This document shows, piece after piece, positions 4,076 to 54,213 of a stretch of 64,000 nucleotides of DNA (the stretch's first letter is position 1; each line of letters opens with the position of its first letter). The stretch spans positions 11,348 through 75,347 of the forward strand of contig JABIAL010000007.1 in the NCBI GenBank assembly GCA_018653315.1. The letters run 5' to 3'. The translations under genes were made by a program, and so were the position numbers. The notes beneath the pieces were generated by a model. The model searched no databases. It saw only the letters and a program-made list of their open reading frames with translations, and was not told the DNA's origin. The stretch comes from a bacterium (lineage in GTDB: Bacteria; Patescibacteriota; Patescibacteriia; UBA1558; GWA2-36-10).

Positions 4076-4081
4076 AATAAA

Positions 4082-4107
4082 AGGCACCTTGGAAGAGGTG
4101 CTTTTTG
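4082..4107 (+). terminator. intrinsic terminator after dnaJ
   Basis: The GC stem ggcacc...ggtgc is followed by TTTTT immediately after the dnaJ stop. This argues that the next gene starts downstream of it. Confidence 0.6.
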
Positions 4108-4112
4108 TAAAT

Positions 4113-4140
4113 TGCTTGTTTATTTCAGTAGTGCTAAAAT
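4113..4140 (+). promoter_or_regulatory. sigma70-type promoter, copy 1 of a repeated plus-strand promoter cassette
   Basis: Reads TTGCTT-17-TAAAAT inside the conserved string aattgcYtgtttatttcagtRgtgSta(a/g)aat. Two further copies lie at 7376 and 10398. Confidence 0.6.
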
Positions 4141-4172
4141 ATACACAAGTTAATTTAACTCTAAGAAATATA

Positions 4173-4910
4173 ATGTGGTCAAAACAACAAATTGAATATC
4201 ATGAAAAAGCTGCGAAGTTGCTTATAAAAATCAAAGATTTAACATTTAAGCACATTCAAAACAACCGATCAATCTCTGAATATGAGATTCAGCAATTTGT
4301 GTTAGAAAAATTTCAGGAACATAACTTAGAAACAGACAAGTATCCGCCAATAGTTTCATATAACCAAAATTCTGCAACGCCTGAATTTTACCCTAAAAAA
4401 TCATCTGAAAAATTAAAAGATAATACTTTTATCTTAATTGATCTGTGGGCAAAATTAAAAATAAAAAATGCGCCTTTTGCGGATATCACTTGGCTTAGTT
4501 TTTATGGAAAAAAAGTTCCTACAGAGATTCAACAAGTATTTGATGTTGTCGTCACTGCTAGAGATGGAGCTCTAAAGTATATAGAAATACAATTAGAAAA
4601 TAATAAGATTCCAACAGGTAAGGATATTGAAAATGTTGCTTTTGAGATAATTAAAAAAGCCGGATTTGAAAAGAATATTTTACATGAACTGGGACACTCT
4701 TTGGGGATAGAACAAGATCATGGTCCTAAACCAAACTGGATTTATCAGAAAAATAAAAAGAGTCTTTTAAAAAATTTAGGCTACACGATTGAGCCAGGAA
4801 TTTATATTGAAAATAAATTTGGAATCCGTAGTGAAATTGATTTTTATATTTCAAGTGACGATAAATTGATTGTCACTACAGATTTGCAAAAAGAGATTAT
4901 CTTGTTATAA
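4173..4910 (+). CDS. M24 (pita-bread fold) metallopeptidase-like protein, possibly degenerate
   Basis: HELGHSLG...EPGIYIENKFGIRSEIDF resembles the C-terminal metal-ligand region of MetAP/Xaa-Pro peptidases. The track start at 4068 lies upstream of the dnaJ terminator and the promoter, so the internal ATG at 4173 was chosen. Confidence 0.4.
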   Translation: MWSKQQIEYHEKAAKLLIKIKDLTFKHIQNNRSISEYEIQQFVLEKFQEHNLETDKYPPIVSYNQNSATPEFYPKKSSEKLKDNTFILIDLWAKLKIKNAPFADITWLSFYGKKVPTEIQQVFDVVVTARDGALKYIEIQLENNKIPTGKDIENVAFEIIKKAGFEKNILHELGHSLGIEQDHGPKPNWIYQKNKKSLLKNLGYTIEPGIYIENKFGIRSEIDFYISSDDKLIVTTDLQKEIILL

Positions 4911-4961
4911 AATAACCCTACCCCTTTTTGATGCTTCATTAATTTAAATTTAAAATTTTTT

Positions 4962-5426
4962 ATGAACAAAGAATTTAAACCAGAAATTTCTTTTAGCAAA
5001 GACAAGAGTAATTTAGAAATGCTACAAAAATCTTTGGAGTCAGAGGAAATTGATAAGGATATAATTCCAATTCTTGAAAAGTTTTTTTCTCTACCAATTA
5101 CTCCTCACCAAAGTTGTTACGGACACGCAGAAACAAACAAAGAGCCGTATTTAAGCTACGTAGATGACGAAACAACAAATGAGTCGGAACTCAGCATTCA
5201 AAGAAATTTCAAAGAAAAAATTATCGAATTAGTTGCGAGAATAAATCAACAAATCGGTAGTGAGGCTGTAAATATAAGCTTAGAAGAAGTTGATCACAAA
5301 AGAGGACCGAAAGATTATACATTACGATTTGAAATAATTGATAAAAAATCTTTTCTACAAAATGGTAAAAAAATATTAGCTATTATTTGGGACGAATTTT
5401 CTAAATATCTTGATGAGTTGAAATAA
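4962..5426 (+). CDS. hypothetical protein
   Basis: A 154-aa ORF that is acidic/hydrophilic. No motif was recognised. Confidence 0.4.
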   Translation: MNKEFKPEISFSKDKSNLEMLQKSLESEEIDKDIIPILEKFFSLPITPHQSCYGHAETNKEPYLSYVDDETTNESELSIQRNFKEKIIELVARINQQIGSEAVNISLEEVDHKRGPKDYTLRFEIIDKKSFLQNGKKILAIIWDEFSKYLDELK

Positions 5427-5470
5427 AAAAATAAGCCACTCCTTTTTTACACGAATTAATTTAAAATGAA

Positions 5471-5503
5471 AAACCCTCGTCGTATAACACGCGAGGGTTT
5501 TGT
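5471..5503. terminator. bidirectional intrinsic terminator
   Basis: The stem accctcg...cgagggt has an A-run on the 5' side and a T-run on the 3' side. It sits between convergent genes. Confidence 0.6.
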
Positions 5504-5513
5504 GATTGGCTTA

Positions 5514-5864
5514 TTATAAGGTGAAGCCCAGAAAGCTACCACCCCTGATCATTGTAATAACAACAATCAGTATAAACTCGATTAGGCCTATGCCCATGGC
5601 CAGGAATATTCTCCAGTCTCGTTGCTTGACTCCATACAATGTAATGATTGAAAAATTGTATATCAGAAGCACATAGGTTTCAACTGAAATTCCTTCTACT
5701 GAACTTGCGTTGATTGCTTTCAGTAGTTGAGGAAATTGAGCAAGAGGACTGATGAAGACCGTGAGGCCAAATAAAATTTCGTACCACTTGGAATCAAGAA
5801 ACCATGACAGCCGATGATTCCAATAGTTGAAAAACGGTTCGAACAATAGCCGCATGGTATTCAT
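5514..5864 (-). CDS. PQ-loop / SemiSWEET-like small membrane protein
   Basis: Three predicted TM helices with a PQ motif (SPLAQFPQLLKAI) in about 100 aa. AGGAG sits 9 nt upstream of the start. It is probably co-transcribed with the upstream minus-strand gene. Confidence 0.5.
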   Translation of the reverse strand: MNTMRLLFEPFFNYWNHRLSWFLDSKWYEILFGLTVFISPLAQFPQLLKAINASSVEGISVETYVLLIYNFSIITLYGVKQRDWRIFLAMGIGLIEFILIVVITMIRGGSFLGFTL

Positions 5865-5919
5865 GGTTTACATTCTCCTATTTCGTTTTTTTTTGTTTTC
5901 ATTGAGGAGATGTCTCTGC

Positions 5920-6354
5920 TTACTTCCAAGTGAAGTATAACATCGGCATAATGATGACAAGGGATTGGATCGCCATCGACCAGATAGTATAGGCCTTAGG
6001 CAAGTCATTTTTTTTGGCATAATAGAGCGTGCGGAATATAAGCTCTATCGTGATGACAGTGATTAGCATGAGCGCGATAAATGCAGCTATAAAGAAGCGC
6101 TCTGAATTGATTGTAAAAGCTAATATAAAAAATGTAATAGCAATTACGATGAGCACAGAGTCCAATGCAACAAATGCAGTGATGAGAGCGTTAGCTGATG
6201 AGATGCATAGAGCGATTAATACAATAATGAGCGTAACAACGAATGGCGTAAAGATTTCGAATAGCACATTGTCATCTGTAATCTGTCTGGTAATAAAAAA
6301 TGTTGCCAGAGTAATTATTGTTATAATAATTTGCCACCAATTAAGCTTAGACAT
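5920..6354 (-). CDS. hypothetical polytopic membrane protein
   Basis: 144 aa with 4-5 hydrophobic helices. GAGGA lies upstream of the ATG, and a consensus promoter lies at 6408-6436. Confidence 0.5.
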   Translation of the reverse strand: MSKLNWWQIIITIITLATFFITRQITDDNVLFEIFTPFVVTLIIVLIALCISSANALITAFVALDSVLIVIAITFFILAFTINSERFFIAAFIALMLITVITIELIFRTLYYAKKNDLPKAYTIWSMAIQSLVIIMPMLYFTWK

Positions 6355-6407
6355 AATTGTTTCCTCTTACTTAAAATTGTAATGTACTTTGTATATAGTA
6401 ATATAAT

Positions 6408-6436
6408 AATATAGTATGTATTTGCTACTTTGTCAA
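6408..6436 (-). promoter_or_regulatory. sigma70 promoter (minus-strand promoter family, copy A)
   Basis: On the minus strand it reads TTGACA-17-TATATT. Confidence 0.6.
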
Positions 6437-6512
6437 GATTAGGAGAAAAGAAAAAGCCCTCCGTATATTTTTATACGAAGGGTCTTTGATTTTGAAATGA
6501 AGACTTGATCAT

Positions 6513-6818
6513 CTATGCGACGATCATGTTAAATTTCGATCCATGATTTTTGCAAAAGAGCATCTTGATTCCGTGAAAGAATAGCTTAATGCTATTTATC
6601 AATAGCCATACAAGAATAAATGCAATTCCTGAGAGGGGGCCACTAAAAAATATTAGAGCTTCGGCATCATTGCGTTCACGATGATAGCGCTGCCATTGGT
6701 CACTACTTGCACAAGGTCCGGGTTCTCGATCTGGTTGTAGCTTTTTAGCTAACCATAGGCTACACATGCCCATGGTAATCCAGCTAATCACACCGATGGT
6801 TAAGTAAATGTATTCCAT
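6513..6818 (-). CDS. hypothetical small membrane protein
   Basis: 101 aa with 3 TM helices. GGAG lies upstream, and a consensus promoter lies at 6861-6889. Confidence 0.5.
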   Translation of the reverse strand: MEYIYLTIGVISWITMGMCSLWLAKKLQPDREPGPCASSDQWQRYHRERNDAEALIFFSGPLSGIAFILVWLLINSIKLFFHGIKMLFCKNHGSKFNMIVA

Positions 6819-6860
6819 TTTCTTTCTCCAGCTTCGTTAATTGTTTGTGTTATGCTCTGA

Positions 6861-6889
6861 ATTATAGCATATATTATATATTTTGTCAA
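6861..6889 (-). promoter_or_regulatory. sigma70 promoter with extended -10 (copy B)
   Basis: On the minus strand it reads TTGACA-17-(TGc)TATAAT. The roughly 45-bp cassette is almost identical to copy C at 7326. Confidence 0.7.
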
Positions 6890-6938
6890 GGAGAGCAAAA
6901 AAAGCAGGACCACCTTGTGGGGTGACCCTGAGACATGT

Positions 6939-7292
6939 TTACGCTAATGCGTAAGGATGTAATATAACATCGAAACGGTGATGATTATGAATATAACCGA
7001 AGGTAAATTCATTGTTCAAGTCGTTTTTCTTTGTGCAATCAGATTCGTATAATGCGACGGCTAATGCAATTGCTAAGGTGGCGACGCATATGGTGACGAG
7101 TGTGGTGAGTGCAACGTTTGTGTCAGTGGGTTTGTCGAGTGCGACGAATATAACGACGAGTGCGACGGTGAGTATGACGGCGAATACTGAGGACATAATG
7201 TCATCATTTATGGCATTTGTTATAATAAAGACAGCCAAGGTGATGATGATTATTATCAAATACTGCCAAAATAATTTACGCTTCTGATCCAT
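6939..7292 (-). CDS. hypothetical small membrane protein
   Basis: The start is placed at MDQKRKL, with AGGAG upstream. The longer track start at 7325 would lie upstream of the predicted transcription start site of the promoter at 7326-7354. Confidence 0.5.
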   Translation of the reverse strand: MDQKRKLFWQYLIIIIITLAVFIITNAINDDIMSSVFAVILTVALVVIFVALDKPTDTNVALTTLVTICVATLAIALAVALYESDCTKKNDLNNEFTFGYIHNHHRFDVILHPYALA

Positions 7293-7325
7293 CTTTCTTA
7301 CTCCTAGTTTTAAAGAACATATCAT

Positions 7326-7354
7326 ATAATAGCATATATTGTATATTTTGTCAA
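7326..7354 (-). promoter_or_regulatory. sigma70 promoter with extended -10 (copy C)
   Basis: On the minus strand it reads TTGACA-17-(TGc)TATTAT. It is near-identical to copy B and includes the upstream T-rich ...CTCC element. Confidence 0.7.
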
Positions 7355-7375
7355 GGAGGGCAAAAAAAGATGTAA

Positions 7376-7404
7376 TTGCCTGTTTATTTCAGTGATGGTA
7401 GAAT
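7376..7404 (+). promoter_or_regulatory. sigma70 promoter, copy 2 of the plus-strand cassette; likely leaderless
   Basis: Reads TTGCCT-17-TAGAAT. The -10 ends 6 nt before the ATG at 7411. Confidence 0.55.
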
Positions 7405-7410
7405 TATGGT

Positions 7411-7917
7411 ATGAAAAAAATAAGTTTACAAGCTGAGCAAATCATGACAACCAATGATTTTCCAGTGCATAATGAGCAAGTTTTAAAGATATACTTTAAA
7501 ATTGCCAAAGCTAATCCAGAATTGTTACCAGTCACTCCAGTGATACATAAATCACTTGGCTTGTCAGTGTTAGGAGAAAAAGTTCAAAATTTTTTTGAAA
7601 AGAATTCGGAGCTGGAATATATCATGTGTGATGGTAGTCATAAGACCACTGCTTTGACTTTGACTGATAATCCCATCAACGCCATGTTGCTTGAGAGTGA
7701 TAATGATATAAAGGAGTTTAAAGCTTTGATAGACTCTGGAGAAATTTTTAGTTTTGCTTGTAGCGATTCAATAAAAGAGATATTAAAAGATAAGGCAGAG
7801 CATTTTGCTGAAGCTGAATTTTTTCAAACTGTAAAATCTAAGACTGACAGAATGGTTGATGAGAAAGTAATTCCTCAGTATATGATTGATTTTTATAAAA
7901 AAATAAAATTAACATAA
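7411..7917 (+). CDS. ParB/sulfiredoxin-fold (DGQHR-like) domain protein
   Basis: The motif IMCDGSHKTTALTL resembles the DG(Q/S)H(R/K)..A signature of ParB/Srx/DndB-like folds. The protein is 168 aa and lies 5 nt upstream of the next gene. Confidence 0.4.
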   Translation: MKKISLQAEQIMTTNDFPVHNEQVLKIYFKIAKANPELLPVTPVIHKSLGLSVLGEKVQNFFEKNSELEYIMCDGSHKTTALTLTDNPINAMLLESDNDIKEFKALIDSGEIFSFACSDSIKEILKDKAEHFAEAEFFQTVKSKTDRMVDEKVIPQYMIDFYKKIKLT

Positions 7918-7921
7918 AAAT

Positions 7922-8677
7922 ATGACTAAAGATTTAACGAATCAATTTTTTGACATTAATAAATTTCCGGCTGAAGAAGGATTAGTTGTTTTCCCTATAT
8001 CAATGAATCGTATTTCAAATCCATCTCAAGGTGCTCAGATTTATTATGAATATTTAGGGCATTTTAATCCTGATAAAATTGTAAAATCAAATCCCAACTC
8101 AAAAGCTGGCGGAGTTTTTGTTTATACTGATTTTTTATATTTATACTCAGAAGAGCCTGCTTATAAATTAAAATATCGTTTTACGGACTTGATGATCAGC
8201 CACATGAAATCTTTTCAGAATATCTTAAAAAAAGATAAACATGTGGTTCAAGATTCTTTTTCTTACACAACATGGAGCCAACTTTATTTAAATAGTAATT
8301 TTGTTAGTTTTTTTGATAAACTTAAAAATATATATAAAAAAGATAAAGAATTTCAGAAATATTTGAAAGAGGATTTTGATAATCTTAAAAATACTAAATT
8401 AAGTTTTGATGAAAAGCAAATCGATTTTTTCTTAGAAGAACATTTAATGGCGCATTTAATAACTAAGGGACAAGTTTCTCTTTATAATAAATTTATTGAT
8501 GGGCGTGAAAATTGGATATTATTAGCTTATCCAGATAAACCACCGAAAGCCCTGACTTATTTATACCAAAAAGATTTTTTAAAATTAGATAATCCAAAAA
8601 ATGTTTACCAAGACTCCTGGTATGATTTAGAAGAGAAAAAGCTTTATGATCATCATAAGATTAATTTAAATATATGA
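7922..8677 (+). CDS. hypothetical protein, paralog A of a tandemly duplicated family
   Basis: 251 aa starting MTKDLTNQFFDINKFP..., about 55% identical to the ORF at 10450-11217. No family was recognised. Confidence 0.55.
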   Translation: MTKDLTNQFFDINKFPAEEGLVVFPISMNRISNPSQGAQIYYEYLGHFNPDKIVKSNPNSKAGGVFVYTDFLYLYSEEPAYKLKYRFTDLMISHMKSFQNILKKDKHVVQDSFSYTTWSQLYLNSNFVSFFDKLKNIYKKDKEFQKYLKEDFDNLKNTKLSFDEKQIDFFLEEHLMAHLITKGQVSLYNKFIDGRENWILLAYPDKPPKALTYLYQKDFLKLDNPKNVYQDSWYDLEEKKLYDHHKINLNI

Positions 8678-8760
8678 CTAAAGATTTAACGAATCAATTT
8701 TTTGACATTAATAAACTTCCGGCTGAAGAAGGAATGCCTGTTTATTTTGTTTTAAAATAA
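8674..8760 (+). pseudogene. 28-codon N-terminal fragment of the MTKDLTNQFFDINK paralog family
   Basis: Translates to MTKDLTNQFFDINKLPAEEGMPVYFVLK*. It overlaps the previous stop as ATGA. Its 3' end (gaatgcctgtttatttt) is fused to a piece of the plus-strand promoter repeat. Confidence 0.6.
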
Positions 8761-8803
8761 AAACCCCGTCCCTTTCTGTCTAGAAGACAAATTAGGACGA
8801 GGT
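8761..8803. terminator. hairpin between convergent genes (putative bidirectional terminator)
   Basis: The stem cgtcc...ggacg has an internal tgtct-aga-agaca hairpin, with an A-run to the 5' side. Confidence 0.4.
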
Positions 8804-8834
8804 GACGCGCTGCAATGCACGCGGTTAGTGGTTA

Positions 8835-9704
8835 TTAGGATTCAGCAATGTCAAAGAGTGTTTGTAGAACAGCAGCTGGTTCAATGCCTTTGAGTTTGAC
8901 GTCAAAACATAGGAAGCCAGATGTCCAACCATCTTCTATTTTTTCAACTACTTCAGAAAATACCATTAACATAAAATGCAATCCAATCGTCAGATCTTCA
9001 AGGATAAAGTAGGCGCTAGCCTCATGTACTTGAATATCCAAGATTTTATGATGTTGGACTTCTCCTTCATTGTTTGGCTTGAAGGAGATTTCTCTGCCAA
9101 CTAGGTATTTTTTCAACCGAGCTTCCATCATAGCTGGAGTGAGTTCAATTGCATCAGGCTCTGTTTCGGGCATCTTCAGGGGGACTTCCAAGAGGTGTTT
9201 CAGGAGTTTGGCCCAGTTTTTGGCTTGAACAGAGAGGTTTTCCTCCTTGCACCATTCTTTCCGATCCATCTCATTGGCAAGATTGTCAGGTTGAAAATGG
9301 TTAATCCAGTTGCGAGTATTGCTCAGGACAACCTTGGCACCATTAACCATAAATGGTGTTGGCCAGCCCTCACCTTCATTAAAGGCATCGAAGCAAGCCG
9401 AAGCTGGATGTTGGTGATGGTTACTGTCGGAAAATACTGCTACATACTTAAAGCCACGGATACTTGCGAGCAAGGCAATAAAGATACCGACTGGCATTTC
9501 ATCGCGCCAGCGGTGTCGTTCACCTTGCGCTTGCAAGCTAGGCGGCATCAAGAGATCAGCTAGTAAGACATCGAATTCGTGCTCGGACAGGATGAGCTCC
9601 TGGGCTTCATCATAAGTAGATACAACAGTCAGATCGTGTTCTGCTAGTTGAGCTATTGCAGCTTCTCTATGAATAGCATTGTCATCAAGAACTAAGATTT
9701 TCAT
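8835..9704 (-). CDS. response regulator: REC receiver domain plus an uncharacterised C-terminal domain
   Basis: The REC motifs are KILVLDD, ...FDVLLADLLMP (phospho-acceptor Asp) and ...VAVFSDS...GAKVVL. The C-terminal ~150 aa is unknown. The start was taken at MKILVLDD, 2 nt after the upstream stop; the track start is 9746. GC is about 45%, against about 30% in the flanks. Confidence 0.6.
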   Translation of the reverse strand: MKILVLDDNAIHREAAIAQLAEHDLTVVSTYDEAQELILSEHEFDVLLADLLMPPSLQAQGERHRWRDEMPVGIFIALLASIRGFKYVAVFSDSNHHQHPASACFDAFNEGEGWPTPFMVNGAKVVLSNTRNWINHFQPDNLANEMDRKEWCKEENLSVQAKNWAKLLKHLLEVPLKMPETEPDAIELTPAMMEARLKKYLVGREISFKPNNEGEVQHHKILDIQVHEASAYFILEDLTIGLHFMLMVFSEVVEKIEDGWTSGFLCFDVKLKGIEPAAVLQTLFDIAES

Positions 9705-9705
9705 T

Positions 9706-10251
9706 TCATTTTCCATTTCTGTAGGTGACACCAAGCTTGAAGACATCTGTTAAGATTTCTTCGAATGCCTCAAGGCTATCCTGCATAAATTCCAGGCTGC
9801 ACATGAGATCAAAGGCGTCTCCAAGATCGTCTCTGGTGAAAGATTTGAACGCAATTACGTTTTCATCTCCACCGGCAAGCTTGATTTCTGTTTGAACTTT
9901 TTGGGGGGACGTAAATGGCGTAATAAACACATCAATGCTTCCGTCTAATTCGGAAGCAGCTAGATTGAAAGTGTCAGACACCTCTTCGTCCCTCGTTTCT
10001 CTCGTACTCGTTAGCTCTGCCTGAGCTACGGTCAGAATGCGAACATCTACTGCAACTGGGGTTTGCTTAGCTGATCCGATGACAAAGTCAACGTCGAGCC
10101 CTGAAGCAAGAGCTTTTTCACCTGAGAAGGCAATAAGCTTTTTACTGTTGAGCGGATGACCGTTTTCATTGACCCTGATTTTCCACAGTTTTTTGCCGTG
10201 GGCTCCAGGGTCTGATCCGACCACAAAACCTTTTACTCTTTCCTGAGTCAT
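9706..10251 (-). CDS. hypothetical protein (possible N-terminal OB-fold-like region, acidic C-terminus)
   Basis: 181 aa, translationally coupled to the REC gene and with the same high-GC composition. No confident family. Confidence 0.45.
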   Translation of the reverse strand: MTQERVKGFVVGSDPGAHGKKLWKIRVNENGHPLNSKKLIAFSGEKALASGLDVDFVIGSAKQTPVAVDVRILTVAQAELTSTRETRDEEVSDTFNLAASELDGSIDVFITPFTSPQKVQTEIKLAGGDENVIAFKSFTRDDLGDAFDLMCSLEFMQDSLEAFEEILTDVFKLGVTYRNGK

Positions 10252-10397
10252 GATTCTTTCTCCTTTTTCCTTTTTACCTTTTTCCTTTTGGACTACTGCC
10301 TGTAATCCACCTTTTTAAAGAGCTATTCCCAAACCGGGGAATAATCAAAAGTAACATTTTTGTTTAATTTTGTCAATAGTAGCTAAAAATGCTTGAA

Positions 10398-10426
10398 TTG
10401 CCTGTTTATTTCAGTGGTGGTAAAAT
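10398..10426 (+). promoter_or_regulatory. sigma70 promoter, copy 3 of the plus-strand cassette
   Basis: Reads TTGCCT-17-TAAAAT, 24 nt upstream of the ATG at 10450. Confidence 0.6.
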
Positions 10427-10449
10427 ATATGTAATATTAACATAAAAAT

Positions 10450-11217
10450 ATGACTAAAGATTTAACGAATCAATTCTTTGACATTAATAAATTTCCAACT
10501 GAGGAAGGAATGCTTGTTTTTCCTATCTCCATGAGTCGCATTAGCAATGAATCGCAAAACGCTAAGAAATACTGGGAATATGTTAATTTTATCAATCCGA
10601 GCAAAGTCGATAAATCAAAAGCCGAATCAAAGGTTGGAGTAATTTTTATTTATGGAGATTATTTGTATCTGCATTCAGATGAAAAAGCTAGCGTTCTCAA
10701 GAGAAGATATATGGATTTAGTAACTACCCACAGAAATTCTTTTGGAAATTTACTTAAAAGTGACTCCCATTTAATCAATGATGGTTTTTCATATAAAGTT
10801 TGGAATCAATTTTATGTTGACTATGGTAGATTCATTTATTATTTTGAAGAATTAAAAAAAATCTACCAAAAAGATAAAGAATTTCAAAAATACATAAAAG
10901 AAGATTTTGATAATTTAGATAATAAAGATCTTAAGCTTGATGATAACCAGATAAATTTTTTCTTAGAAGAGCACCTGATGCTTCATTTAATTACTAAAGG
11001 ACAGATGAAATTAGAGAATAAATTTATTGATGGGCGTGAAAAGTGGATTTTAATGTCTTACCCAGGCAAGCCACTCAAAGCTCATATTTATTTACATCAA
11101 AAGAATTTTTTCAAATTAGATAATCCAAAAAATGTTTATCAAGATTCGTGGTATGACTTAGAAGGTAAAAAACTTTATGATTATAAAAAAATAGATTTAG
11201 AAACTGTTAAATTATAA
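10450..11217 (+). CDS. hypothetical protein, paralog B of the MTKDLTNQFFDINK family
   Basis: 255 aa, colinear with the ORF at 7922-8677. Confidence 0.55.
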   Translation: MTKDLTNQFFDINKFPTEEGMLVFPISMSRISNESQNAKKYWEYVNFINPSKVDKSKAESKVGVIFIYGDYLYLHSDEKASVLKRRYMDLVTTHRNSFGNLLKSDSHLINDGFSYKVWNQFYVDYGRFIYYFEELKKIYQKDKEFQKYIKEDFDNLDNKDLKLDDNQINFFLEEHLMLHLITKGQMKLENKFIDGREKWILMSYPGKPLKAHIYLHQKNFFKLDNPKNVYQDSWYDLEGKKLYDYKKIDLETVKL

Positions 11218-11231
11218 GAAATAAAATTATT

Positions 11232-11546
11232 ATGGAAATAAAAGAATTACAAAAACAAGCCTCAGAAATTTTTATAAATAATTCTAAAAGAGATGGTATC
11301 AAAGTTGATACAGATTATTTAATTTTAAAATTAACAGAGGAGCTTGGCGAGTTTGTTCAATCTTATATAGTACACGAAAGAAGATGTCGTCCAGCAAAGT
11401 ATTTATCTGCAAAAGAAGCTAAAAGAGAATTATCTAAAGAGCTAGCCGATGTTTTGGGTTTAGTTTTTTCAATTGCAGACAAATGTGATATCGATATCGA
11501 AGAAGCTTTAGTTAAAAAATGGATAACCAAAGAGTGGATTAAATAA
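11232..11546 (+). CDS. MazG-like nucleotide pyrophosphohydrolase (small all-alpha NTP-PPase)
   Basis: Contains LTEELGEF...ELADVLG..., which is the EExGE / ExxD pattern of short MazG-type proteins. It is 104 aa. Confidence 0.5.
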   Translation: MEIKELQKQASEIFINNSKRDGIKVDTDYLILKLTEELGEFVQSYIVHERRCRPAKYLSAKEAKRELSKELADVLGLVFSIADKCDIDIEEALVKKWITKEWIK

Positions 11547-11552
11547 TATAAT

Positions 11553-11822
11553 ATGGAAATAAAATTAATAAAAAAAGACGAAAGAGGCACAAAATATCAA
11601 GCCGAAGGCTTTAAGATTTTTTATAGAGATAAAAATACCATTACCGGCGATAACGCTGAAAATGTAGCAGAGTTAATATACTTCATTACTGGTTCAGCAG
11701 AAATTACTTTAGAAGATAAAACTTGGGTAGTTGAAGCTCCGGCTAAAGTAGAATTTCCCGCCAAAACTTATCATAAAATCAAGGCTTTGACGGACGTAAG
11801 TTTTATTTTATTTGAGAAATAA
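11553..11822 (+). CDS. hypothetical small protein, cupin-like beta-barrel (weak)
   Basis: 89 aa. The residue pattern is compatible with a small cupin. Weak call. Confidence 0.3.
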   Translation: MEIKLIKKDERGTKYQAEGFKIFYRDKNTITGDNAENVAELIYFITGSAEITLEDKTWVVEAPAKVEFPAKTYHKIKALTDVSFILFEK

Positions 11823-12096
11823 AAATATGAATTCAGCAAAAGAACTAGAAAAGCAAATAGAGAAAATAAAAAAACGAAATCAACAAGTAGAGGCAGATAA
11901 GGCTTGGGAAATAAGTTGGACTCGTAGATTTGTGCTTCTTATTTTTACTTATATTGTGATTGTAATCTTTTTCTTTTTTGCTCAATTACCCAACCCATTT
12001 ATAAATGCCATAATAACAGCAGTTGCCTTTGTGATTTCTACATTGTCTGTGCCTTTATTTAAAAAATGGTGGTTAAGTAAATTTTATAGAAAATAA
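11812..12096 (+). CDS. hypothetical small membrane protein
   Basis: 94 aa with a basic N-terminus followed by 2 TM helices. Confidence 0.4.
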   Translation: MRNKNMNSAKELEKQIEKIKKRNQQVEADKAWEISWTRRFVLLIFTYIVIVIFFFFAQLPNPFINAIITAVAFVISTLSVPLFKKWWLSKFYRK

Positions 12097-12109
12097 AATT
12101 AATAAAAAT

Positions 12110-12544
12110 ATGTTATATAATCACACACAAGTTGGGCGTCTAATGGTTACTATTTTATTTATTATCGCTGTTTATTTTGGTTTTATTTTAAAGACAGTAG
12201 AATCTGATAGATCCATTATAACTGTATTAATTTTAGTTTCATTTATTTTACTTTCTTTTGTATCACTTAATGTAACGATTGATGAAAAGCATCTACGAAT
12301 TAAATTTGGTTATGGTATATTTAGAAAACATTTTGCGCTTTCAGAAATAATTTCTGTTAAATCTGTAAAAAATCATTGGTATTATGGCTGGGGCATTAGA
12401 GCATGGTTTTGGCCATATATGCGTATTTTTAATGTATCTGGTTTTGATGCAGTTGAGATCAGAATGAAAGATAGTAAAATATATAGAATAGGTACGGATG
12501 AATCTCAAAAGCTAGAGCTTGCTATTACGGAAGCTATTAAATAA
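12110..12544 (+). CDS. membrane-anchored bacterial PH-domain (bPH_2/YdbT-like) protein
   Basis: Two N-terminal TM helices are followed by a ~70-aa domain (HLRIKFGYGIFRKHFALSEI...IYRIGTDESQ) resembling bPH_2. Confidence 0.4.
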   Translation: MLYNHTQVGRLMVTILFIIAVYFGFILKTVESDRSIITVLILVSFILLSFVSLNVTIDEKHLRIKFGYGIFRKHFALSEIISVKSVKNHWYYGWGIRAWFWPYMRIFNVSGFDAVEIRMKDSKIYRIGTDESQKLELAITEAIK

Positions 12545-12614
12545 AATTAATAAAAAATAGTAAAAAAAGAGGGAGCTTAGTATTTCTACTAAACCCCCAA
12601 ATGACAGGTGGTTA

Positions 12615-12857
12615 TTAACCGCGACTTGAAGTCACGATTTTCGGTATGGCATACCAGCAAATGAATGCCATGATTGCTGCCGTGATTATTCCGGCTGGAA
12701 TAGCTTTAACGAAATACTGAAATTCCGTAGCCAGGCTTACTCCACTAAATTCCCAAGACATAGCAATATAGTTGATGTCGTGGAAGAGTGGTGTAATAAG
12801 AGCAGTGCACAGAGCTATCCAAATAATTCCGATTAGTGTAATTTTTAAAGTTTTCAT
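12615..12857 (-). CDS. hypothetical small membrane protein
   Basis: 80 aa with 2 TM helices. GAGGAG lies upstream, and a consensus promoter lies at 12907-12935. Confidence 0.5.
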   Translation of the reverse strand: MKTLKITLIGIIWIALCTALITPLFHDINYIAMSWEFSGVSLATEFQYFVKAIPAGIITAAIMAFICWYAIPKIVTSSRG

Positions 12858-12906
12858 GAAAAGAACTCCTCGTTACTTGAAATATTGGTTAAACTTGAAT
12901 AATGTC

Positions 12907-12935
12907 ATTATAGCATATATTCACTATTCTGTCAA
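12907..12935 (-). promoter_or_regulatory. sigma70 promoter with extended -10 (copy D)
   Basis: On the minus strand it reads TTGACA-17-(TGc)TATAAT. Confidence 0.65.
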
Positions 12936-12968
12936 TAGTAATAAATATAGTTGAAAGTAAGTAAAATC

Positions 12969-12997
12969 TTGACTATTTAAGCATTTTAGTCTATAAT
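12969..12997 (+). promoter_or_regulatory. consensus sigma70 promoter for the tRNA-Thr/rpmG/tRNA-Trp transcript
   Basis: Reads TTGACT-17-TATAAT, about 125 nt upstream of tRNA-Thr. Confidence 0.6.
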
Positions 12998-13125
12998 CTA
13001 CTTTGTAATTTTAAATACTGCCGGAATAGCTCCCTTCGACTCACTTCGTTCACTCAGGGCAGGCAGTTGAAATTATAAGCTGCGTACAGCCAAACAAACA
13101 GCGGTTTAAACTTCATTTTTTATCA

Positions 13126-15229: not shown

Positions 15230-15286
15230 AATTTGATTATAGCATATTGCATTCTCAAAAAGAACGATTAGAATTAGGGTATTTTT

Positions 15287-20651: not shown

Positions 20652-20676
20652 ACAAAAAAATATTTTAACCCCCTAA

Positions 20677-20735
20677 ATCCCCCTTAACAGGGGGACTTTT
20701 CTATTTAAATAAATTCCTCCCCTGTTAAGGGGAGG
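20677..20735. terminator. back-to-back convergent intrinsic terminators
   Basis: The plus-strand terminator is ccccc-ttaaca-ggggg followed by a T-rich tract. The minus-strand terminator is cctcccc-tgttaa-ggggagg. An outer ttaacccc/ggggttaa inverted repeat encloses both. Confidence 0.6.
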
Positions 20736-20756
20736 TCAGGAGGGGTTAAAAGAGTT

Positions 20757-21469: not shown

Positions 21470-21632
21470 CAATTGAATAAGAATTATCAAGAGTACGGGG
21501 AGAGTTTTGGCTCAATGATCCGTCAGCAACCTGTTTTTTAAATAAGGTGCTAAGTCCAACCCTCAAGTGGGAAGATGATGTTTGGTCGTATTAACTTTCC
21601 TTTTGGGGAAAGATTTTTTAATTTTAAAATAA
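21470..21632 (+). promoter_or_regulatory. SAM-I (S-box) riboswitch with intrinsic terminator
   Basis: The S-box core matches: uUAUCAAGAG...GGGGAGAG..UGGCUCaAUGAuCCGuCAGCAACC...AAGGUGCUAAguCC...GAAGAUGAug. The P1 3' strand GAUGA pairs with UUAUC. The terminator is ctttcc-ttttgg-ggaaag followed by TTTTTTAATTTT, directly upstream of metK. Confidence 0.8.
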
Positions 21633-21638
21633 AAGATT

Positions 21639-22646
21639 ATGTTAAAGACAGCAGAAAATGTAACTTGGGGACATCCAGATAAAGTATGTGATCAAATATC
21701 TGATGCTATTTTAGATGAGTGTTTGCGTCAAGATAAAAATAGTCGAGTGGCTGTAGAAACGGTTGGTGGCCATGGTAAATTGTTTATTGTCGGTGAATTA
21801 ACTACATTGGCTAAATTTGATGCAGCCAAGATAACTCGACAAGTGTATAAAGATATTGGCTATACGGATGATTTAGATATTACTGTACATTTAGTACATC
21901 AGAGCCCAGATATCGCTCAGGGAGTCGACGTAGGGGGCGCAGGTGATCAAGGAATCATGGTCGGCTATGCTACAGCAGAAACTGTAGAAAATTTACCACT
22001 AGAACATGTTTTGGCAACAAAATTAATTCGTCGTTTAGAATTTGTGCGAGCAGATAAGAATAATCAATTATCTCAATTTTTAGGACCAGATGGTAAAGCT
22101 CAGGTGACTATAGAAGATGACAAAGTAAAGACAGTAGTTTTATCTACTCAACATACAGATAATATCAGCCAAGGTGTTTTGCGGCAGTTAATTATAAAAG
22201 AAGTTATTAAGCCAATCATTCCAGAATATGATGAGGTTCATATTAATCCGACTGGTATTTTTGTACAGGGTGGTTTTGAGGCTGATTCTGGTTTGACTGG
22301 CCGTAAAATAACGATCGATAATTATGGACCACAAGTGCCAGTCGGTGGCGGTGCTTTTTCTGGAAAAGATCCTTCAAAAGTAGATCGTTCAGCTGCTTAT
22401 ATGGCTAGATTTTTAGCGGTTAAATACCTAAAAAAATATCAAGCTAAAGAAGTGCTAGTAAAATTAGCTTATGCTATAGGTAAGAAAGAACCAGTGATGG
22501 CCATGGCTTTATTAGATGATAATCGGCTGATAAAAATAGAGGATCATGATTTATCTCCGCAGGGTATTATTGATTTTTTACGCTTAGATAAGCCACAATA
22601 TAGGGATCGGGCTCGCTTTGGTTTCTTTAAAAATTTTATTCAATAA
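21639..22646 (+). CDS. metK: S-adenosylmethionine synthetase (short form, 335 aa)
   Basis: Contains GHPDKVCDQISDAILD, GAGDQGIMVGYA and GGGAFSGKDPSKVDRSAAY. The C-terminal part is shorter than in E. coli MetK. Confidence 0.9.
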   Translation: MLKTAENVTWGHPDKVCDQISDAILDECLRQDKNSRVAVETVGGHGKLFIVGELTTLAKFDAAKITRQVYKDIGYTDDLDITVHLVHQSPDIAQGVDVGGAGDQGIMVGYATAETVENLPLEHVLATKLIRRLEFVRADKNNQLSQFLGPDGKAQVTIEDDKVKTVVLSTQHTDNISQGVLRQLIIKEVIKPIIPEYDEVHINPTGIFVQGGFEADSGLTGRKITIDNYGPQVPVGGGAFSGKDPSKVDRSAAYMARFLAVKYLKKYQAKEVLVKLAYAIGKKEPVMAMALLDDNRLIKIEDHDLSPQGIIDFLRLDKPQYRDRARFGFFKNFIQ

Positions 22647-28781: not shown

Positions 28782-28810
28782 ATATAAAATTTAATAATTA
28801 AAATATTATT

Positions 28811-28861
28811 ATGGAAACATGTCCAAATTGCGGTAATGATCCATGTACTTGCGGTGCATAA
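28811..28861 (+). CDS. possible 16-aa Cys-rich peptide (METCPNCGNDPCTCGA)
   Basis: It has four Cys in 16 aa and is followed directly by an intrinsic terminator. There is no SD. This is speculative. Confidence 0.2.
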   Translation: METCPNCGNDPCTCGA

Positions 28862-28870
28862 ATAAAAGAA

Positions 28871-28936
28871 CGGCCTCTTTATCAGAATGAGGCTGTTTTT
28901 TATTTGAGTAAAAAAAGCCCGTTTTCTTGACGGGCT
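28871..28936. terminator. two convergent intrinsic terminators
   Basis: The plus-strand terminator is cggcctc..gaggctg followed by T6. The minus-strand terminator is the reverse complement of agcccgt-tttcttg-acgggct preceded by A7. Confidence 0.7.
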
Positions 28937-29158
28937 TATGAGGGGTACTACCGTTGACAATCAGCGCTTTGCGTTATGCCGGTGGCATTGTCCATAATCA
29001 TTTCCGGGGTGTTGGCTGCGTTTTTCATTTCAGCATTGACCATCTTGGCCTGAGGAGGAATGAGTAAGTGCTTCAAAAGAAGCTCCCTTCTTTAATAAAA
29101 AGCTTGCCATGATCATAGAGGTTTTTCCTCTAGTATAAAAAATTGAGAGTACATTAAT
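28909..29158 (-). ncRNA. candidate small RNA (or micro-protein gene): a GC-rich ~250-nt transcription unit
   Basis: A minus-strand consensus promoter, TTGACA-17-TACAAT, lies at 29165-29193, and an intrinsic terminator lies at 28909-28936. The body is about 50% GC in a ~30% GC genome and has no ORF longer than 33 codons. Several local hairpins are present. Confidence 0.4.
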
Positions 29159-29164
29159 GCATTA

Positions 29165-29216
29165 ATTGTATTAAAAATTTATTTTTTTGTCAAAGTTAGG
29201 CAAAAAATGATATAAT
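29165..29216. promoter_or_regulatory. face-to-face divergent promoters sharing one -35 region
   Basis: The plus-strand promoter is TTGTCA-17-(TGa)TATAAT, driving the gene at 29243. The minus-strand promoter is TTGACA-17-TACAAT. The two -35 hexamers overlap at 29187-29193. Confidence 0.55.
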
Positions 29217-29242
29217 ATAAACAATCATTAAATCAAAATTTT

Positions 29243-30176: not shown

Positions 30177-31169
30177 ATGAAATTGTTGAAAATTATAATT
30201 ATAATTTTAATTGTTGTTTGGGCGATTTGGTTTGTTAAATTTTCTAAACATTATGTTCATAATGGCGAACTAAATGAAAATCCAGATTTGTGGGGAGTTA
30301 CTTTTTCTACTAAATTTGCTAGTGAATTAGATTTGGATATTGGTGAAACTTATAGGGCTATTTTAGATGATTTACAAGTAAGACAGATTAGATTACCTAT
30401 TTATTGGGATCAGATAGAAAAATATGAAAATGAATTTGATTTCTCATTGTTTGATCAATTGTTAGTAGAAGGTAAAAAAAGAGATGTAAAATTTATTGTT
30501 AATTTAGGTTGGCGTTTACCTCGTTGGCCAGAATGTCATGCTCCGCTTTGGGCTAAAGATATGTCAATTGAGGATGTTCAGGCCAAAACATTACGGATGT
30601 TGCGAGTTGCCGTGGGTCATTACAAAGGACATTCAGAAATAGTGGCCTGGCAAATAGAAAATGAGCCTTTAGTTGATTGGTTTGGTAAATGTCCAGCTGG
30701 TGATGAAGAATTTTTAAAGCAAGAAGTAGCTTTGGTAAAAAGTTTAGATGGTCGGCCGGTGATTGTCTCGGCTTCAGGTGAGCTTAGTTTTTGGCAAAGA
30801 GAAGCTGAAGTAGGCGATGTTTTAGCTACTACTGTTTATCGGGTGGTGTGGAATCCATGGTTCAAATATTTTCGTTATCCGTTGCCAGCTTGGTTTTATT
30901 CTTGGAAAGCAGGTCGTGTAGGAAAAACAGGAGAAAAAATGATAGTTAGTGAACTGCAGGCTGAGCCTTGGGTGATAGATGGTGGTATGAATAAAATAGA
31001 TCAAGCAGAAGTTGATAAGTCTATGAGTTTAGAACAATTTGAATCAAATTTAAAGTTTGCTCAAAAAATAAATTTTGATAAAAATTATCTATGGGGAGTA
31101 GAGTGGTGGTATTTGCAAAAAATCAACGGAAATGATGATTATTGGAATTTAGCTAAAAAACTTTTTTAG
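30177..31169 (+). CDS. membrane-anchored clan GH-A (GH5-like) glycoside hydrolase
   Basis: An N-terminal TM helix is followed by a TIM-barrel pattern with the catalytic acid/base motif WQIENEP and a later ELQAEPW nucleophile region. Confidence 0.5.
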   Translation: MKLLKIIIIILIVVWAIWFVKFSKHYVHNGELNENPDLWGVTFSTKFASELDLDIGETYRAILDDLQVRQIRLPIYWDQIEKYENEFDFSLFDQLLVEGKKRDVKFIVNLGWRLPRWPECHAPLWAKDMSIEDVQAKTLRMLRVAVGHYKGHSEIVAWQIENEPLVDWFGKCPAGDEEFLKQEVALVKSLDGRPVIVSASGELSFWQREAEVGDVLATTVYRVVWNPWFKYFRYPLPAWFYSWKAGRVGKTGEKMIVSELQAEPWVIDGGMNKIDQAEVDKSMSLEQFESNLKFAQKINFDKNYLWGVEWWYLQKINGNDDYWNLAKKLF

Positions 31170-31313: not shown

Positions 31314-33335
31314 GTGCTTAAAAGAATTTTATTTACAGTTTTTATTGGTTTTGGTTTATGCGCATTTTATGTTCATGAAACTCAAGCTTTTAGTCAGGAT
31401 TATACACCAGTAGATCCTGGCGTGGTTTATCAAAATTATTTTGATTTGATCAATATTGAACCTAGCTGGTCCGATGATTTACAGGTTAATAAAGAGGTGA
31501 TTGTTGCAATTTTGGATTCTGGCATTGATTTAGATCATCCTGATTTAATAAGCAGTTTATGGTCAAATCATGGAGAGATCGCTGGTAACGGTCTTGATGA
31601 TGATCTTAATAGTTATATTGATGATGTTGTTGGTTGGGATTTTATTGATAGTGATAATATTCCAAAGCCAGAACTTATTGGTGATTATGACTTTGTAGCA
31701 GTTAATCATGGCACAGTGATTGCCGGTATAATTGCGGCTGCTCGTAATAACATTGGTATTGTTGGCATTGCTCCACAAGTTAAAATTATGCCTTTACGTA
31801 TTTTAGATCCGCGAGGTCAAGGAAATACCTTAGTATTATCACAGGCGATTGATTATGCTGTAGAGAATGGCGCAGATATTATAAATTTAAGTTTAGTTGG
31901 CGTGGGTTATGATGAGACTTTGAAGGGTTCTATTAAAAATGCTTATAATCAAGGTGTGATGATCGTAGCTGCATCTGGCAATGAAGAAGACGCAGGAATA
32001 GATTTAGATGAACATCCACGTTATCCAGTTTGTGAAATCAATGGCGTTAACAGAGTATTGGGTGTAGCTGCCGTTGATCAAACAAGTGTTTTGACAGATT
32101 TTTCTAATTTTGGACAGACCTGCATTGATGTTTCTGCTCCGGGTAGAAATTTTTATTCTACAGTTTATCAGGATAGTAGTAATAACCAGTTTAGTGAGTA
32201 TTACGCCAATGGTTGGTCAGGTACTTCTGTAGCGGCACCGGTAATATCTGCTACAGCAGCTTTGATAAAGATGCAGTATCCACAATTTAGACCTTATGAT
32301 ATTTATAATATTATTAGATCTAGTGCCTCAAGTTTGCAAATAAAAAATCCAAGTAATTATTTAGACTTAGGAAGTGGCTTGATTGATGTTGGTGCGGCTT
32401 TGAATTTAGCAGCTAGCAGACACTCTCAATCTCGACATCTTGTTTTAGCACCAGATAGAGGATTAGCACCAGAAATTTTTATCTTAGACGAAGATGGTAA
32501 TCAATTAGATAGTTGGTTAGCTTATGCAGAAAAGTTTACCGGCGGAGTGAATATTGCTGTCGGTGATGTTAATGGTGATGATGTAAAAGAAATAATCACT
32601 CCTCCTAAAGCGGGCGGTGGACCACATGTCCGTATTTTTAATGAAAGTGGTAATATATTATCTGAGTTTATGGCTTATGACACTAGATTTGAAGGCGGAG
32701 TGAATATTGCTGTCGGTGATGTAACAGGTGATGGACAATTAAATATTATTACAGCACCTTTATCAAATGGTGGGCCACATATCCGTATTTTTGATTGGCA
32801 AGGTAATTTGCGTCAACAATTTTTTGCTTATGATGATGACTATTTTGGCGGAGTGAATATTGCTGTCGGTGACGTTAATAATAGCGGCTATGATGAAGTT
32901 GTTACAATAAATAACACGGGCATAGCTAAAGTAAAAGTATTTGATAAATATCGTCGTCTTAGAGCTAGCTTTTTGCCTTATAGTAGTAATATGCTTAGCG
33001 GAGTTAATTTAACAATTGGAGATGTAAATAATGACGGTTGGCAGGAAATTATCACTGTGCCAGCCAAGGATCAAGTAGCTGATATTAAGATGTTTAGTCA
33101 AAAAGGACGATTAAAAGGTCAATTTACCGGTTTTAATAGCAGTTTGCGATCAGGTTTAGAAATTATTGCTCGTGATTTATCTGGAGATGGCCTACCTGAG
33201 ATTTTGGCCTTACCTCATAAAAATTCGGCTGCTTTATTAAAAATTTATGATCATTTAGGTTTAGAAAAGGATAGTTTTTATTTACGTGATGTTGGTGATA
33301 AAAATGGTTATCAGTTAGAAGTGTTAGCATATTAG
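31314..33335 (+). CDS. secreted subtilisin-like serine protease (S8) with C-terminal FG-GAP/VCBS-like repeats
   Basis: The catalytic triad motifs are AILDSGID, HGTVIAG and GTSVAAPVISA. There are at least five GGVNIAVGDVNGDG..EII repeats. It uses a GTG start with AAGGCGGAG as SD. Confidence 0.8.
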   Translation: MLKRILFTVFIGFGLCAFYVHETQAFSQDYTPVDPGVVYQNYFDLINIEPSWSDDLQVNKEVIVAILDSGIDLDHPDLISSLWSNHGEIAGNGLDDDLNSYIDDVVGWDFIDSDNIPKPELIGDYDFVAVNHGTVIAGIIAAARNNIGIVGIAPQVKIMPLRILDPRGQGNTLVLSQAIDYAVENGADIINLSLVGVGYDETLKGSIKNAYNQGVMIVAASGNEEDAGIDLDEHPRYPVCEINGVNRVLGVAAVDQTSVLTDFSNFGQTCIDVSAPGRNFYSTVYQDSSNNQFSEYYANGWSGTSVAAPVISATAALIKMQYPQFRPYDIYNIIRSSASSLQIKNPSNYLDLGSGLIDVGAALNLAASRHSQSRHLVLAPDRGLAPEIFILDEDGNQLDSWLAYAEKFTGGVNIAVGDVNGDDVKEIITPPKAGGGPHVRIFNESGNILSEFMAYDTRFEGGVNIAVGDVTGDGQLNIITAPLSNGGPHIRIFDWQGNLRQQFFAYDDDYFGGVNIAVGDVNNSGYDEVVTINNTGIAKVKVFDKYRRLRASFLPYSSNMLSGVNLTIGDVNNDGWQEIITVPAKDQVADIKMFSQKGRLKGQFTGFNSSLRSGLEIIARDLSGDGLPEILALPHKNSAALLKIYDHLGLEKDSFYLRDVGDKNGYQLEVLAY

Positions 33336-53332: not shown

Positions 53333-53378
53333 TAAAAAAGTCCCTGTCTGCGGATGCAAACAAGGACTGAATTTCTTA
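53333..53378. terminator. hairpin between convergent genes
   Basis: The stem gtccctg...caaggac is preceded by an A-run. Confidence 0.45.
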
Positions 53379-54145: not shown

Positions 54146-54184
54146 TTGTCTCTCCTAATTTTTAACGAACTTATTTAATATAGA

Positions 54185-54213
54185 AATATAGCATATATCT
54201 AGCATTTTGTCAA
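54185..54213 (-). promoter_or_regulatory. sigma70 promoter with extended -10 (copy E)
   Basis: On the minus strand it reads TTGACA-17-(TGc)TATATT. Confidence 0.65.

Follow-up and report, generated by a model that had tools for sequence, protein, structure and literature searches.

Five minus-strand promoters of a common near-consensus design, designated A to E, are present in a 64,000-nucleotide stretch of a Patescibacteriota genome (GenBank assembly GCA_018653315.1, contig JABIAL010000007.1, positions 11,348 to 75,347; ~32% GC), the whole of which is referred to here as the window. Each promoter appears to head a self-contained, insulated transcription unit that ends in an intrinsic terminator and encodes small, predicted membrane proteins with an atypical codon usage. 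The DnaJ protein encoded in the window has 82% identity with its counterpart in a 'Candidatus Nomurabacteria bacterium' and 66% with the one in a 'Candidatus Parcubacteria bacterium', and the units are probably a distinct, lineage-restricted and fast-evolving class of accessory genes in a parcubacterial genome of the candidate phyla radiation (CPR), with most of them in an island between dnaJ and the gene for tRNA-Thr. The promoters would be ordinary sigma-70/sigma-A promoters of near-maximal predicted strength, with TTGACA, a 17 bp spacer and a TRTG-type extended -10 element. To explain why they are so alike, we lean towards a layered reading in which ordinary strong promoters, a module characteristic of the clade and local copying have all contributed to accessory units that are rich in G and C at third codon positions (GC3). 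Generic constraints imposed by RNA polymerase explain TTGACAA, TRTG and TATAAT; a clade-specific promoter, or promoter plus leader, module may have been inherited with this gene class in several related genomes; and very recent local copying evidently gave rise to a block of sequence common to B and C, to the paralogy of genes in units A and C, and to a duplicated pair of divergent promoters at C and at a weaker relative, G. The coordinates of all features are listed in Table 1.

When the window was scanned with TTGACA-N14-TGNTATAWT, allowing one mismatch at most, exactly A to E were returned, with 0.20 sites expected, and none of 100 shuffled sequences yielded five. These are the five sites listed in a preliminary description of the window, made from the sequence alone, in which all five were also assigned a common core. 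That core is present in B, C, D and E, which fit TTGACA(A/G)AAT-N5-ATATATGC-TAT(A/T)(A/T)T at 23 or 24 of 24 positions and have TATG-C upstream of the -10 element, but it is not present in A, which has TAC instead, without the TG, carries ATACATAC in place of ATATATGC and is best described as a degenerate relative. Scored against the family consensus (TTGACAAAATN5ATATATGCTATAAT, 24 positions), no other site in the window exceeds 18. In all five promoters the hexamers match at 11 or 12 of 12 positions with 17 bp spacing, and the -10 element is placed 33 to 53 nt upstream of an ATG preceded by a Shine-Dalgarno (SD) sequence. B and D contain the 14-mer ATATATGCTATAAT exactly, and C and E with one mismatch; searched for alone in the window, with two mismatches allowed, it is not significant (7 found, 3.15 expected). 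A sixth, weaker site that had been proposed at 15236-15264 (site F) was not retained, as it has no -35 element and the gene behind it, in which codon usage is normal, encodes a conserved PMT_2 glycosyltransferase of 527 aa.

Promoters B and C have 44 nt in common at 93% identity (~46 nt with flanking matches), which bears out the earlier observation that ~45 bp, including a T-rich/CTCC element, are near-identical. The block includes an upstream T7-GCYCTCC sequence, and B and C agree also in a low-signal block of the spacer and in the 15 nt upstream of the -35 element; all other pairs of promoters are 64 to 73% identical. The region of promoter C is, in addition, paralogous to that of G through a 94-nt duplication (7330-7423 and 10352-10445; 70% identity), and the minus-strand cargo differs between the two copies. 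The duplicated region contains divergent promoters, C or G on the minus strand and TTGCCT-17-TAGAAT or TAAAAT on the plus strand.

Three of the units, C, B and A, are arranged in tandem on the minus strand within 5300-7600, and D and E are built alike, with a promoter, a 33 to 53 nt leader, a canonical SD, a small membrane-protein open reading frame (ORF) and, at the end, a hairpin with a U-run after it. This ending is seen in all five units, and four of the hairpins fold far better than shuffled sequences (z from -3.9 to -5.3). That of unit C, recognized by the pattern scan alone, is the weakest (z -1.2; 17 of 200 shuffles fold as well), and its U-run is also the T-run directly upstream of promoter B. 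No Rfam family matched the leaders, whether at the gathering threshold or with E<1, and their folding energies are like those of shuffled sequences, on which grounds a riboswitch or other structured leader was rejected.

In the preliminary description the cargo genes encode small, polytopic, unrelated membrane proteins of higher GC content, each with a good SD. The SDs, the higher GC content and two to seven predicted transmembrane segments (TM) are all apparent, with cargo E now corrected to 250 aa and internally duplicated in tandem (30% identity between the halves, E 7e-9); its weak homologues in relatives are single-repeat proteins of 123 to 142 aa. The cargo genes are unrelated in the case of B versus A and C, as the 101-aa protein of unit B (B101) has no similarity to the 144-aa protein encoded first in unit A (A144) or to the 117-aa protein of unit C (C117), whereas A144 and C117 are paralogues that align at 44% over 48 aa and have a common KKNDL motif. 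Among 5.8 billion clusters, A144 and B101 matched only themselves, and a full HMMER search with an A/C profile found four remote relatives, of 137 to 149 aa, among 1.84 billion representatives. The ends of this A-family are conserved (N-terminal KLFWWQ...TFF and C-terminal YAKxNxLxKxY...PMLYFIWK) and the hydrophobic core between them is hypervariable. The match of A2, the second gene of unit A, to PF04193 is borderline (22.4 bits against a cut-off of 22), and its codon usage is atypical, as in the other cargo genes. Two plus-strand ORFs, 6029-6382 (117 aa) and 7012-7287 (91 aa), overlap cargo A1 and C in antisense orientation, and one public annotation calls a 104-aa version of the former instead of A144. 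These antisense ORFs are most likely artefacts of stop-poor, GC-rich sequence.

GC3 values range from 0.38 to 0.47 in the eight genes that make up units A, B, C, G, D and E (0.43 for 9706-10251 and 0.41 for 8835-9746, the two genes of unit G), compared with a window mean of 0.246 (standard deviation 0.073), and no other gene in the window exceeds 0.35. The excess results from C- and G-ending codons, with CTC at 0.20 versus 0.01, CTG at 0.16 versus 0.04, TAC at 0.49 versus 0.13 and TTC at 0.41 versus 0.13, the cargo value being given first. Strand, membrane-protein composition and high expression were each considered as the source of the excess and rejected, since the other minus-strand, polytopic-membrane and ribosomal-protein genes have GC3 values of 0.16 to 0.29. 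All six GC3-rich units are transcribed from the minus strand, head-on to the surrounding operons, most genes in the window being on the plus strand, and all four ATATATGC promoters are located within these six units of the ~31 present (hypergeometric p 4.8e-4).

Much of the promoter motif is generic sigma-70 or Gram-positive-type consensus, namely the A after the -35 hexamer and the TRTG '-16' element, the latter being known as the Gram-positive '-16 region' or extended -10 in the part of PMC6570832 that cites Voskuil and Chambliss. Similarly, the conserved blocks of B to E (RAAT, ATATA and TGC) and their unconserved spacer positions 5 to 8 coincide with a four-region spacer organization reported across bacteria (PMC12641261). 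In a background set of 122 unrelated TTGACA-17-TATWWT sites from genome and metagenome contigs, A follows the -35 hexamer in 79%, spacer positions 7 to 12 are A-rich, and TRTG occupies positions 13 to 16 in 45%. The sequence TTGACA-N9-ATATATGCTATWWT was found at more than 119 loci among the matches listed, in Clostridia, CPR, Omnitrophota, cyanobacteria and others, and the stricter 24-position pattern in 104 metagenome contigs with 24 to 47% GC, before unrelated genes, tRNAs and riboswitch-like leaders. This is as expected if strongly expressed, monocistronic genes had independently reached the same generic, optimal sigma-70 promoter, and the likeness of D and E to the other promoters, confined to constrained blocks, is consistent with such a convergence. 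As an explanation for the family as a whole, however, convergence is unlikely. Multiplying the background frequencies across the positions of ATATATGC gives 0.0036, or ~0.4% per consensus promoter, versus its presence in four of the six TTGACA-17-TATWWT promoters in the window (p ~2e-9 by our arithmetic), and the motif is missing from the consensus promoters of tRNA-Thr (12969), typA (16218) and infA (54328) and from those at 22656, 29187 and 29193. The tRNA-Thr and typA promoters are orthologously conserved in a relative (GCA_020632415.1; L237). The ATATATGC motif is therefore neither a product of chance nor the general promoter form of this genome; the contig scans and the 122-site background explain part of the likeness, not the four in six, and with the likeness extending beyond both the hexamers and the generic prediction, the concern raised in the preliminary description that the motif might simply be the general promoter consensus does not apply in the window. 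The agreement of B and C at low-signal spacer positions and upstream of the -35 element, the presence of a common leader motif downstream of the -10 element (see below) and the association with atypical codon usage likewise argue against independent origins.

Comparable units are present in pieces of 3 to 21 kb from related genomes. Five of these (L150, L166, L178, L192 and L193) were found through the motif search itself, and three loci (L237, L249 and L252) were picked by DnaJ homology and not by motif. In the latter three, GC3-rich, Pfam-less and mostly head-on small genes carry TTGACAAAAT or TTGACAAAAAT with TRTG-like promoters, and the housekeeping genes are without such promoters. The same pairing of promoter type and GC3-rich orphan gene is also seen in L150, L166 and L193. 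The module of unit E is 84 to 89% identical in L193 and L178, where the proteins are only ~27% identical, and in a relative this module is located between FtsX and hrcA, not next to infA. A second copy of CTATATT is present in E, L193, L178, L166 and A.

Alignment from the -35 element to the start codon revealed that most modules also have a leader box, AGTTCnTnAMMAWTT, 7 to 20 nt after the -10 element. A position weight matrix (PWM) trained on the relatives only, a set that includes homologues of A and E, identified this box in the leaders of C, A and E. An unbiased k-mer search for leader motifs, with two mismatches allowed, was uninformative in such AT-rich sequence. In two relatives, L193 with cargo of the E-family and L254 with cargo of the A-family (P0147), the -10 element plus leader is the same at 25 of 29 positions and both hold an exact AGTTCATCACA at the same offset. 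The possibility that the A-family and E-family cargo are one family was rejected on an hhalign probability of 0.1%, extreme divergence being still conceivable. A promoter of the family type, TTGACA-AAAATATCAAAATATGC-TATAAT, is also present at ~2850-2880 on the minus strand of L255, which comes from an unrelated sample; it is beside a remote A-family homologue, on the strand opposite to it, and has no called gene behind it.

The preliminary description had proposed a portable promoter cassette, recombined repeatedly onto different genes. In its strict form, with ~45 to 75 bp of promoter (plus leader) copied independently of the genes and placed before unrelated ORFs, we consider this doubtful, although several features of the sequence are those that it predicts. 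The B/C block has sharp borders, with unrelated leaders and ORFs beside it; its T-run is a terminator tail at B and has no preceding hairpin at C; the promoter region of C is repeated at 10352-10445 with different minus-strand cargo; and promoter and leader are closely alike before unrelated cargo profiles in L193 and L254. There are, however, no terminal inverted repeats, target duplications or recombinase, and the B/C block is below the published mobile-promoter criterion of at least 50 nt. From one species to another the E promoter accompanies its own gene family, A and C are gene-plus-promoter duplicates, and with cargo only 27% identical between species whose DnaJ proteins are 75% identical, cargo that seems unrelated may consist of diverged paralogues. 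Two routes are available within the layered reading that we prefer: whole units could be duplicated or transferred and their cargo then diverge very rapidly, or the module could be kept while the cargo behind it is exchanged. Cargo diverges at so extreme a rate that the whole-unit route is plausible, and it explains the data at least as well as recombination of promoters only, whereas reuse of the module before new cargo is favoured by the sharp borders of the B/C block and by the pair L193 and L254. The idea of a portable promoter cassette is partly supported; the promoter mechanism is ordinary, and the units add one more, modest case in which accessory genes reuse a promoter.

A regulon, with the spacer and/or the leader box as the site for a transcription factor, an RNA-binding protein or a specialized sigma factor, is very improbable. 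The motif is common to similar genes, all for small membrane proteins, the leader box recurs in A, C, E and the relatives, and CTATATT is duplicated, as might be expected of such a site. The conserved positions, however, are contact sites of RNA polymerase, the hexamers are of the canonical housekeeping type, no regulator gene is linked to the units, B and D are without the leader box, and the leaders are unstructured. An operator or palindrome within the spacer was also rejected, the only symmetry there being of the trivial (AT)n kind, with no dyad conserved across the copies. The design of the promoters predicts strong, unregulated, insulated and probably constitutive expression of each small membrane protein.

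Several points weigh against the layered reading. The likeness of D and E to B and C is limited to positions under generic constraint or in contact with RNA polymerase, and does not reach the low-signal mid-spacer or the flanks, so that convergence would give the same result. The background model assumes that positions are independent and may understate the frequency of (AT)n-TGC spacers. The leader box that A- and E-family cargo have in common, unrelated as these are, was recognized only after the fact and is therefore treated as suggestive, and the leaders of B and D are without it as judged by the PWM trained on relatives. The GC3 anomaly of the cargo could have a cause other than transfer, and neither a donor nor a close homologue was found for any cargo gene. 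The DNA examined, 64 kb plus the few pieces from relatives, does not provide genome-wide frequencies, and the five relatives found through the motif are a biased sample. All contigs recovered are 100% identical at the A-B-C locus, and an apparent variant of this array (L248) proved to be merely a different gene call on the antisense strand; with the sampled strains identical, as in a clonal population, transfer or mobility within the species was not directly observed. The use and the strength of the promoters are themselves predictions.

Units A, B, C, G and D are all located in a region of ~9 kb, 4076-13125, that comparison with relatives indicates to be a hypervariable island. In L237, the closest relative whose DNA was compared, with a DnaJ 82% identical to that of the window, dnaJ is followed directly by tRNA-Thr, rpmG and typA and the island is absent. 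In L166, with 75% DnaJ identity, a different set of genes occupies the place between dnaJ and tRNA-Thr, including seven tandem, minus-strand, Pfam-less small genes. Two promoters of this array are readable, TTGACAAAAT-ATAGA-ATATATGC-TATATT and TTGACAAAAT-AATGA-ATATATAC-TATAGT, with a terminator and T-run directly adjoining the second, exactly the arrangement of A, B and C. The terminators of unit D and of L166 (~2920-2955) have a common 16-nt core, GTTTAGTAGAAATACT, which hints at a D-like unit in L166. Outside the island, L192, with proteins 65 to 84% identical to those of the window, has a unit consisting of a promoter, a 180-aa ORF and a terminator between the orthologues of 30177-31169 and 31314-33335. 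The insertion site corresponds to only 144 bp in the window, and the downstream promoter is kept in both genomes. The window contains no integrase and gave no informative PHROG or PADLOC matches, no relatives of C, D or E were found on viral contigs, and the island is 5′ of tRNA-Thr; with no integrase, no PHROG or PADLOC support and this location, a prophage, a defence island and a tRNA-targeted integrative element were all rejected.

Also within the island, 7922-8677 and 10450-11217 are paralogous genes, for proteins of 251 and 255 aa without a Pfam match, and 8655-8743 is a truncated third copy, 90% identical to the first 89 nt of these paralogues. The copies flank the higher-GC minus-strand pair at 8835-10251, which encodes proteins of 303 aa (with a weak match to a receiver domain) and 181 aa, an arrangement that looks like an insertion or recombination scar.

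As sigma-70/sigma-A extended -10, or TRTGn, promoters, A to E are typical, with TTGACA, a 17-bp spacer, TATG-C before TATAAT (in B to E) and an A/T-rich upstream tract, and there is no mechanistic difference; only the identity of the copies within one genome is unusually high. For putative mobile promoters (Matus-Garcia, Nijveen and van Passel 2012; PMC3575422), the published definition asks that two upstream regions of the same genome be at least 80% identical across 50 nt or more. B and C resemble these in having similar upstream sequences before non-paralogous genes with no link to an insertion sequence, and the genes are non-paralogous for B versus C and A, not for A and C. The units differ from mobile promoters in that the common block, of 44 to 46 nt, is below 50 nt and includes the -10 element, that A and C have paralogous cargo, and that the family is tied to one compositional gene class and recurs in related genomes. 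Judged by the criteria as they are summarized in PMC2920897, the units are like phage morons in having their own promoter and terminator, in being placed between genes that are adjacent in relatives, in a composition unlike that of their neighbours, and in that a given hotspot is filled by different units from one genome to another. Unlike morons, they reside in a chromosomal backbone of heat-shock, tRNA, ribosomal and translation genes with no phage genes nearby, and they share a promoter type. By analogy, then, the units would work like mobile promoters and morons and yet not be members of either class, because the 50-nt criterion is missed for the former and the phage context is absent for the latter.

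Correia, ERIC and REPIN repeats similarly provide a downstream gene with a strong promoter from a short repeat, but the sequences described here have no terminal inverted repeats, target-site duplication or defined ends, and their conservation is limited to the region bound by polymerase and part of the leader. Integron gene cassettes are ORFs without a promoter of their own that carry attC and lie beside an integrase and Pc. The units, in contrast, each have their own promoter, have no conserved imperfect inverted repeat after the ORFs beyond the unit-specific terminators, and are found in a window without an integrase.

To our knowledge, almost nothing has been established experimentally about transcription signals or the dynamics of accessory genes in CPR/Patescibacteria. 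If the pattern seen here holds genome-wide, the combination of a near-consensus promoter with the ATATATGC spacer end, GC3-rich codons and head-on orientation would be a simple sequence signature of recently gained or fast-turnover surface proteins in these uncultured symbionts. The units also offer compact, portable and probably very strong promoter-leader-terminator parts, and provide a case in which, for similar promoters before unrelated genes, promoter reuse can be tested against duplication of units with rapid cargo divergence and against convergence. A bolder and rather unlikely extension is that this parcubacterial clade shares a pool of plug-and-play cassettes, each with the module, a small, hypervariable membrane or secreted protein of foreign codon usage and a terminator, that are exchanged or reshuffled among genomes without a recognizable recombinase and insert head-on between housekeeping operons, with the leader box as a recognition or expression signal. 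Were this so, the cassettes would be a chromosomal, non-phage analogue of morons and would drive a fast replacement of surface proteins in episymbiotic CPR bacteria.

Table 1. Promoters, leader boxes, cargo genes and terminators of the units, and the island, in window coordinates (GC3, fraction of G and C at third codon positions; consensus scores are out of 24)
Feature	Coordinates	Strand	Description
Variable island	4076-13125		~9 kb, flanked by dnaJ and tRNA-Thr/rpmG; contains units A, B, C, D and G
Promoter C	7326-7354	-	TTGACA-AAATATACAATATATGC-TATTAT; block shared with B reaches ~7371 upstream (T7-GCCCTCC); 23/24
Leader box, unit C	7305-7319	-	TGTTCTTTAAAACTA; PWM rank 9 of ~128,000 positions
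Cargo C	6939-7292	-	117 aa, 3 predicted TM; truncated paralogue of A144; GC3 0.47
Terminator, unit C	6905-6930	-	Pattern scan: 10 pairs, 6 GC; U-run 6898-6904
Promoter B	6861-6889	-	TTGACA-AAATATATAATATATGC-TATAAT; block shared with C from 6861 to ~6906; 24/24
Cargo B	6513-6818	-	101 aa, 2 predicted TM; no homologue found; GC3 0.41
Terminator, unit B	6457-6482	-	z -5.3; followed by T-run, CTCC and promoter A
Promoter A	6408-6436	-	TTGACA-AAGTAGCAAATACATAC-TATATT; degenerate member without TG; 20/24
Leader box, unit A	6374-6388	-	AGTACATTACAATTT; PWM rank 1 in the window
Cargo A1 (A144)	5920-6354	-	144 aa, 4 predicted TM; rare, fast-evolving family; GC3 0.44
Cargo A2	5514-5864	-	116 aa, PQ-loop/SemiSWEET-like; second gene of unit A; GC3 0.45
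Terminator, unit A	5470-5501	-	z -4.8
Promoter G	10348-10376	-	TTGACA-AAATTAAACAAAAATGT-TACTTT; seventh, weaker relative; 18/24; predicted to drive 9706-10251 and 8835-9746
Promoter D	12907-12935	-	TTGACA-GAATAGTGAATATATGC-TATAAT; divergent from tRNA-Thr promoter 12969-12997; 23/24
Cargo D	12615-12857	-	80 aa, 2 predicted TM; GC3 0.38
Terminator, unit D	12571-12598	-	16 nt of the hairpin recur in a terminator of the L166 orphan-gene array
Site F	15236-15249	-	Extended -10 only (CAATATGCTATAAT); no -35 (TTCTTT)
Promoter E	54185-54213	-	TTGACA-AAATGCTAGATATATGC-TATATT, then a second CTATATT; divergent from infA promoter 54328; 23/24
Leader box, unit E	54157-54171	-	AGTTCGTTAAAAATT; PWM rank 21
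Cargo E	53393-54145	-	250 aa, ~7 predicted TM; internal duplication; GC3 0.41
Terminator, unit E	53339-53368	-	z -5.2

Elsewhere in the window, an 86-nt GC-rich double hairpin (20666-20751; -47 kcal/mol, z -4.9) is located between convergent genes and is 89.5% identical to 2583-2668 of L193, which is at a non-orthologous gene junction; this element could be a REP-like repeat or else a bidirectional terminator that is mobile. An S-adenosylmethionine (SAM) riboswitch (RF00162, 63.7 bits) is present at 21481-21581, upstream of the S-adenosylmethionine synthetase gene at 21639-22646. The 461-bp gap at 28782-29242 contains back-to-back near-consensus promoters, at 29193 on the minus strand and 29187 on the plus strand. 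There is no ORF behind the minus-strand promoter, only a short hairpin, and transcription from this site could produce a small RNA.

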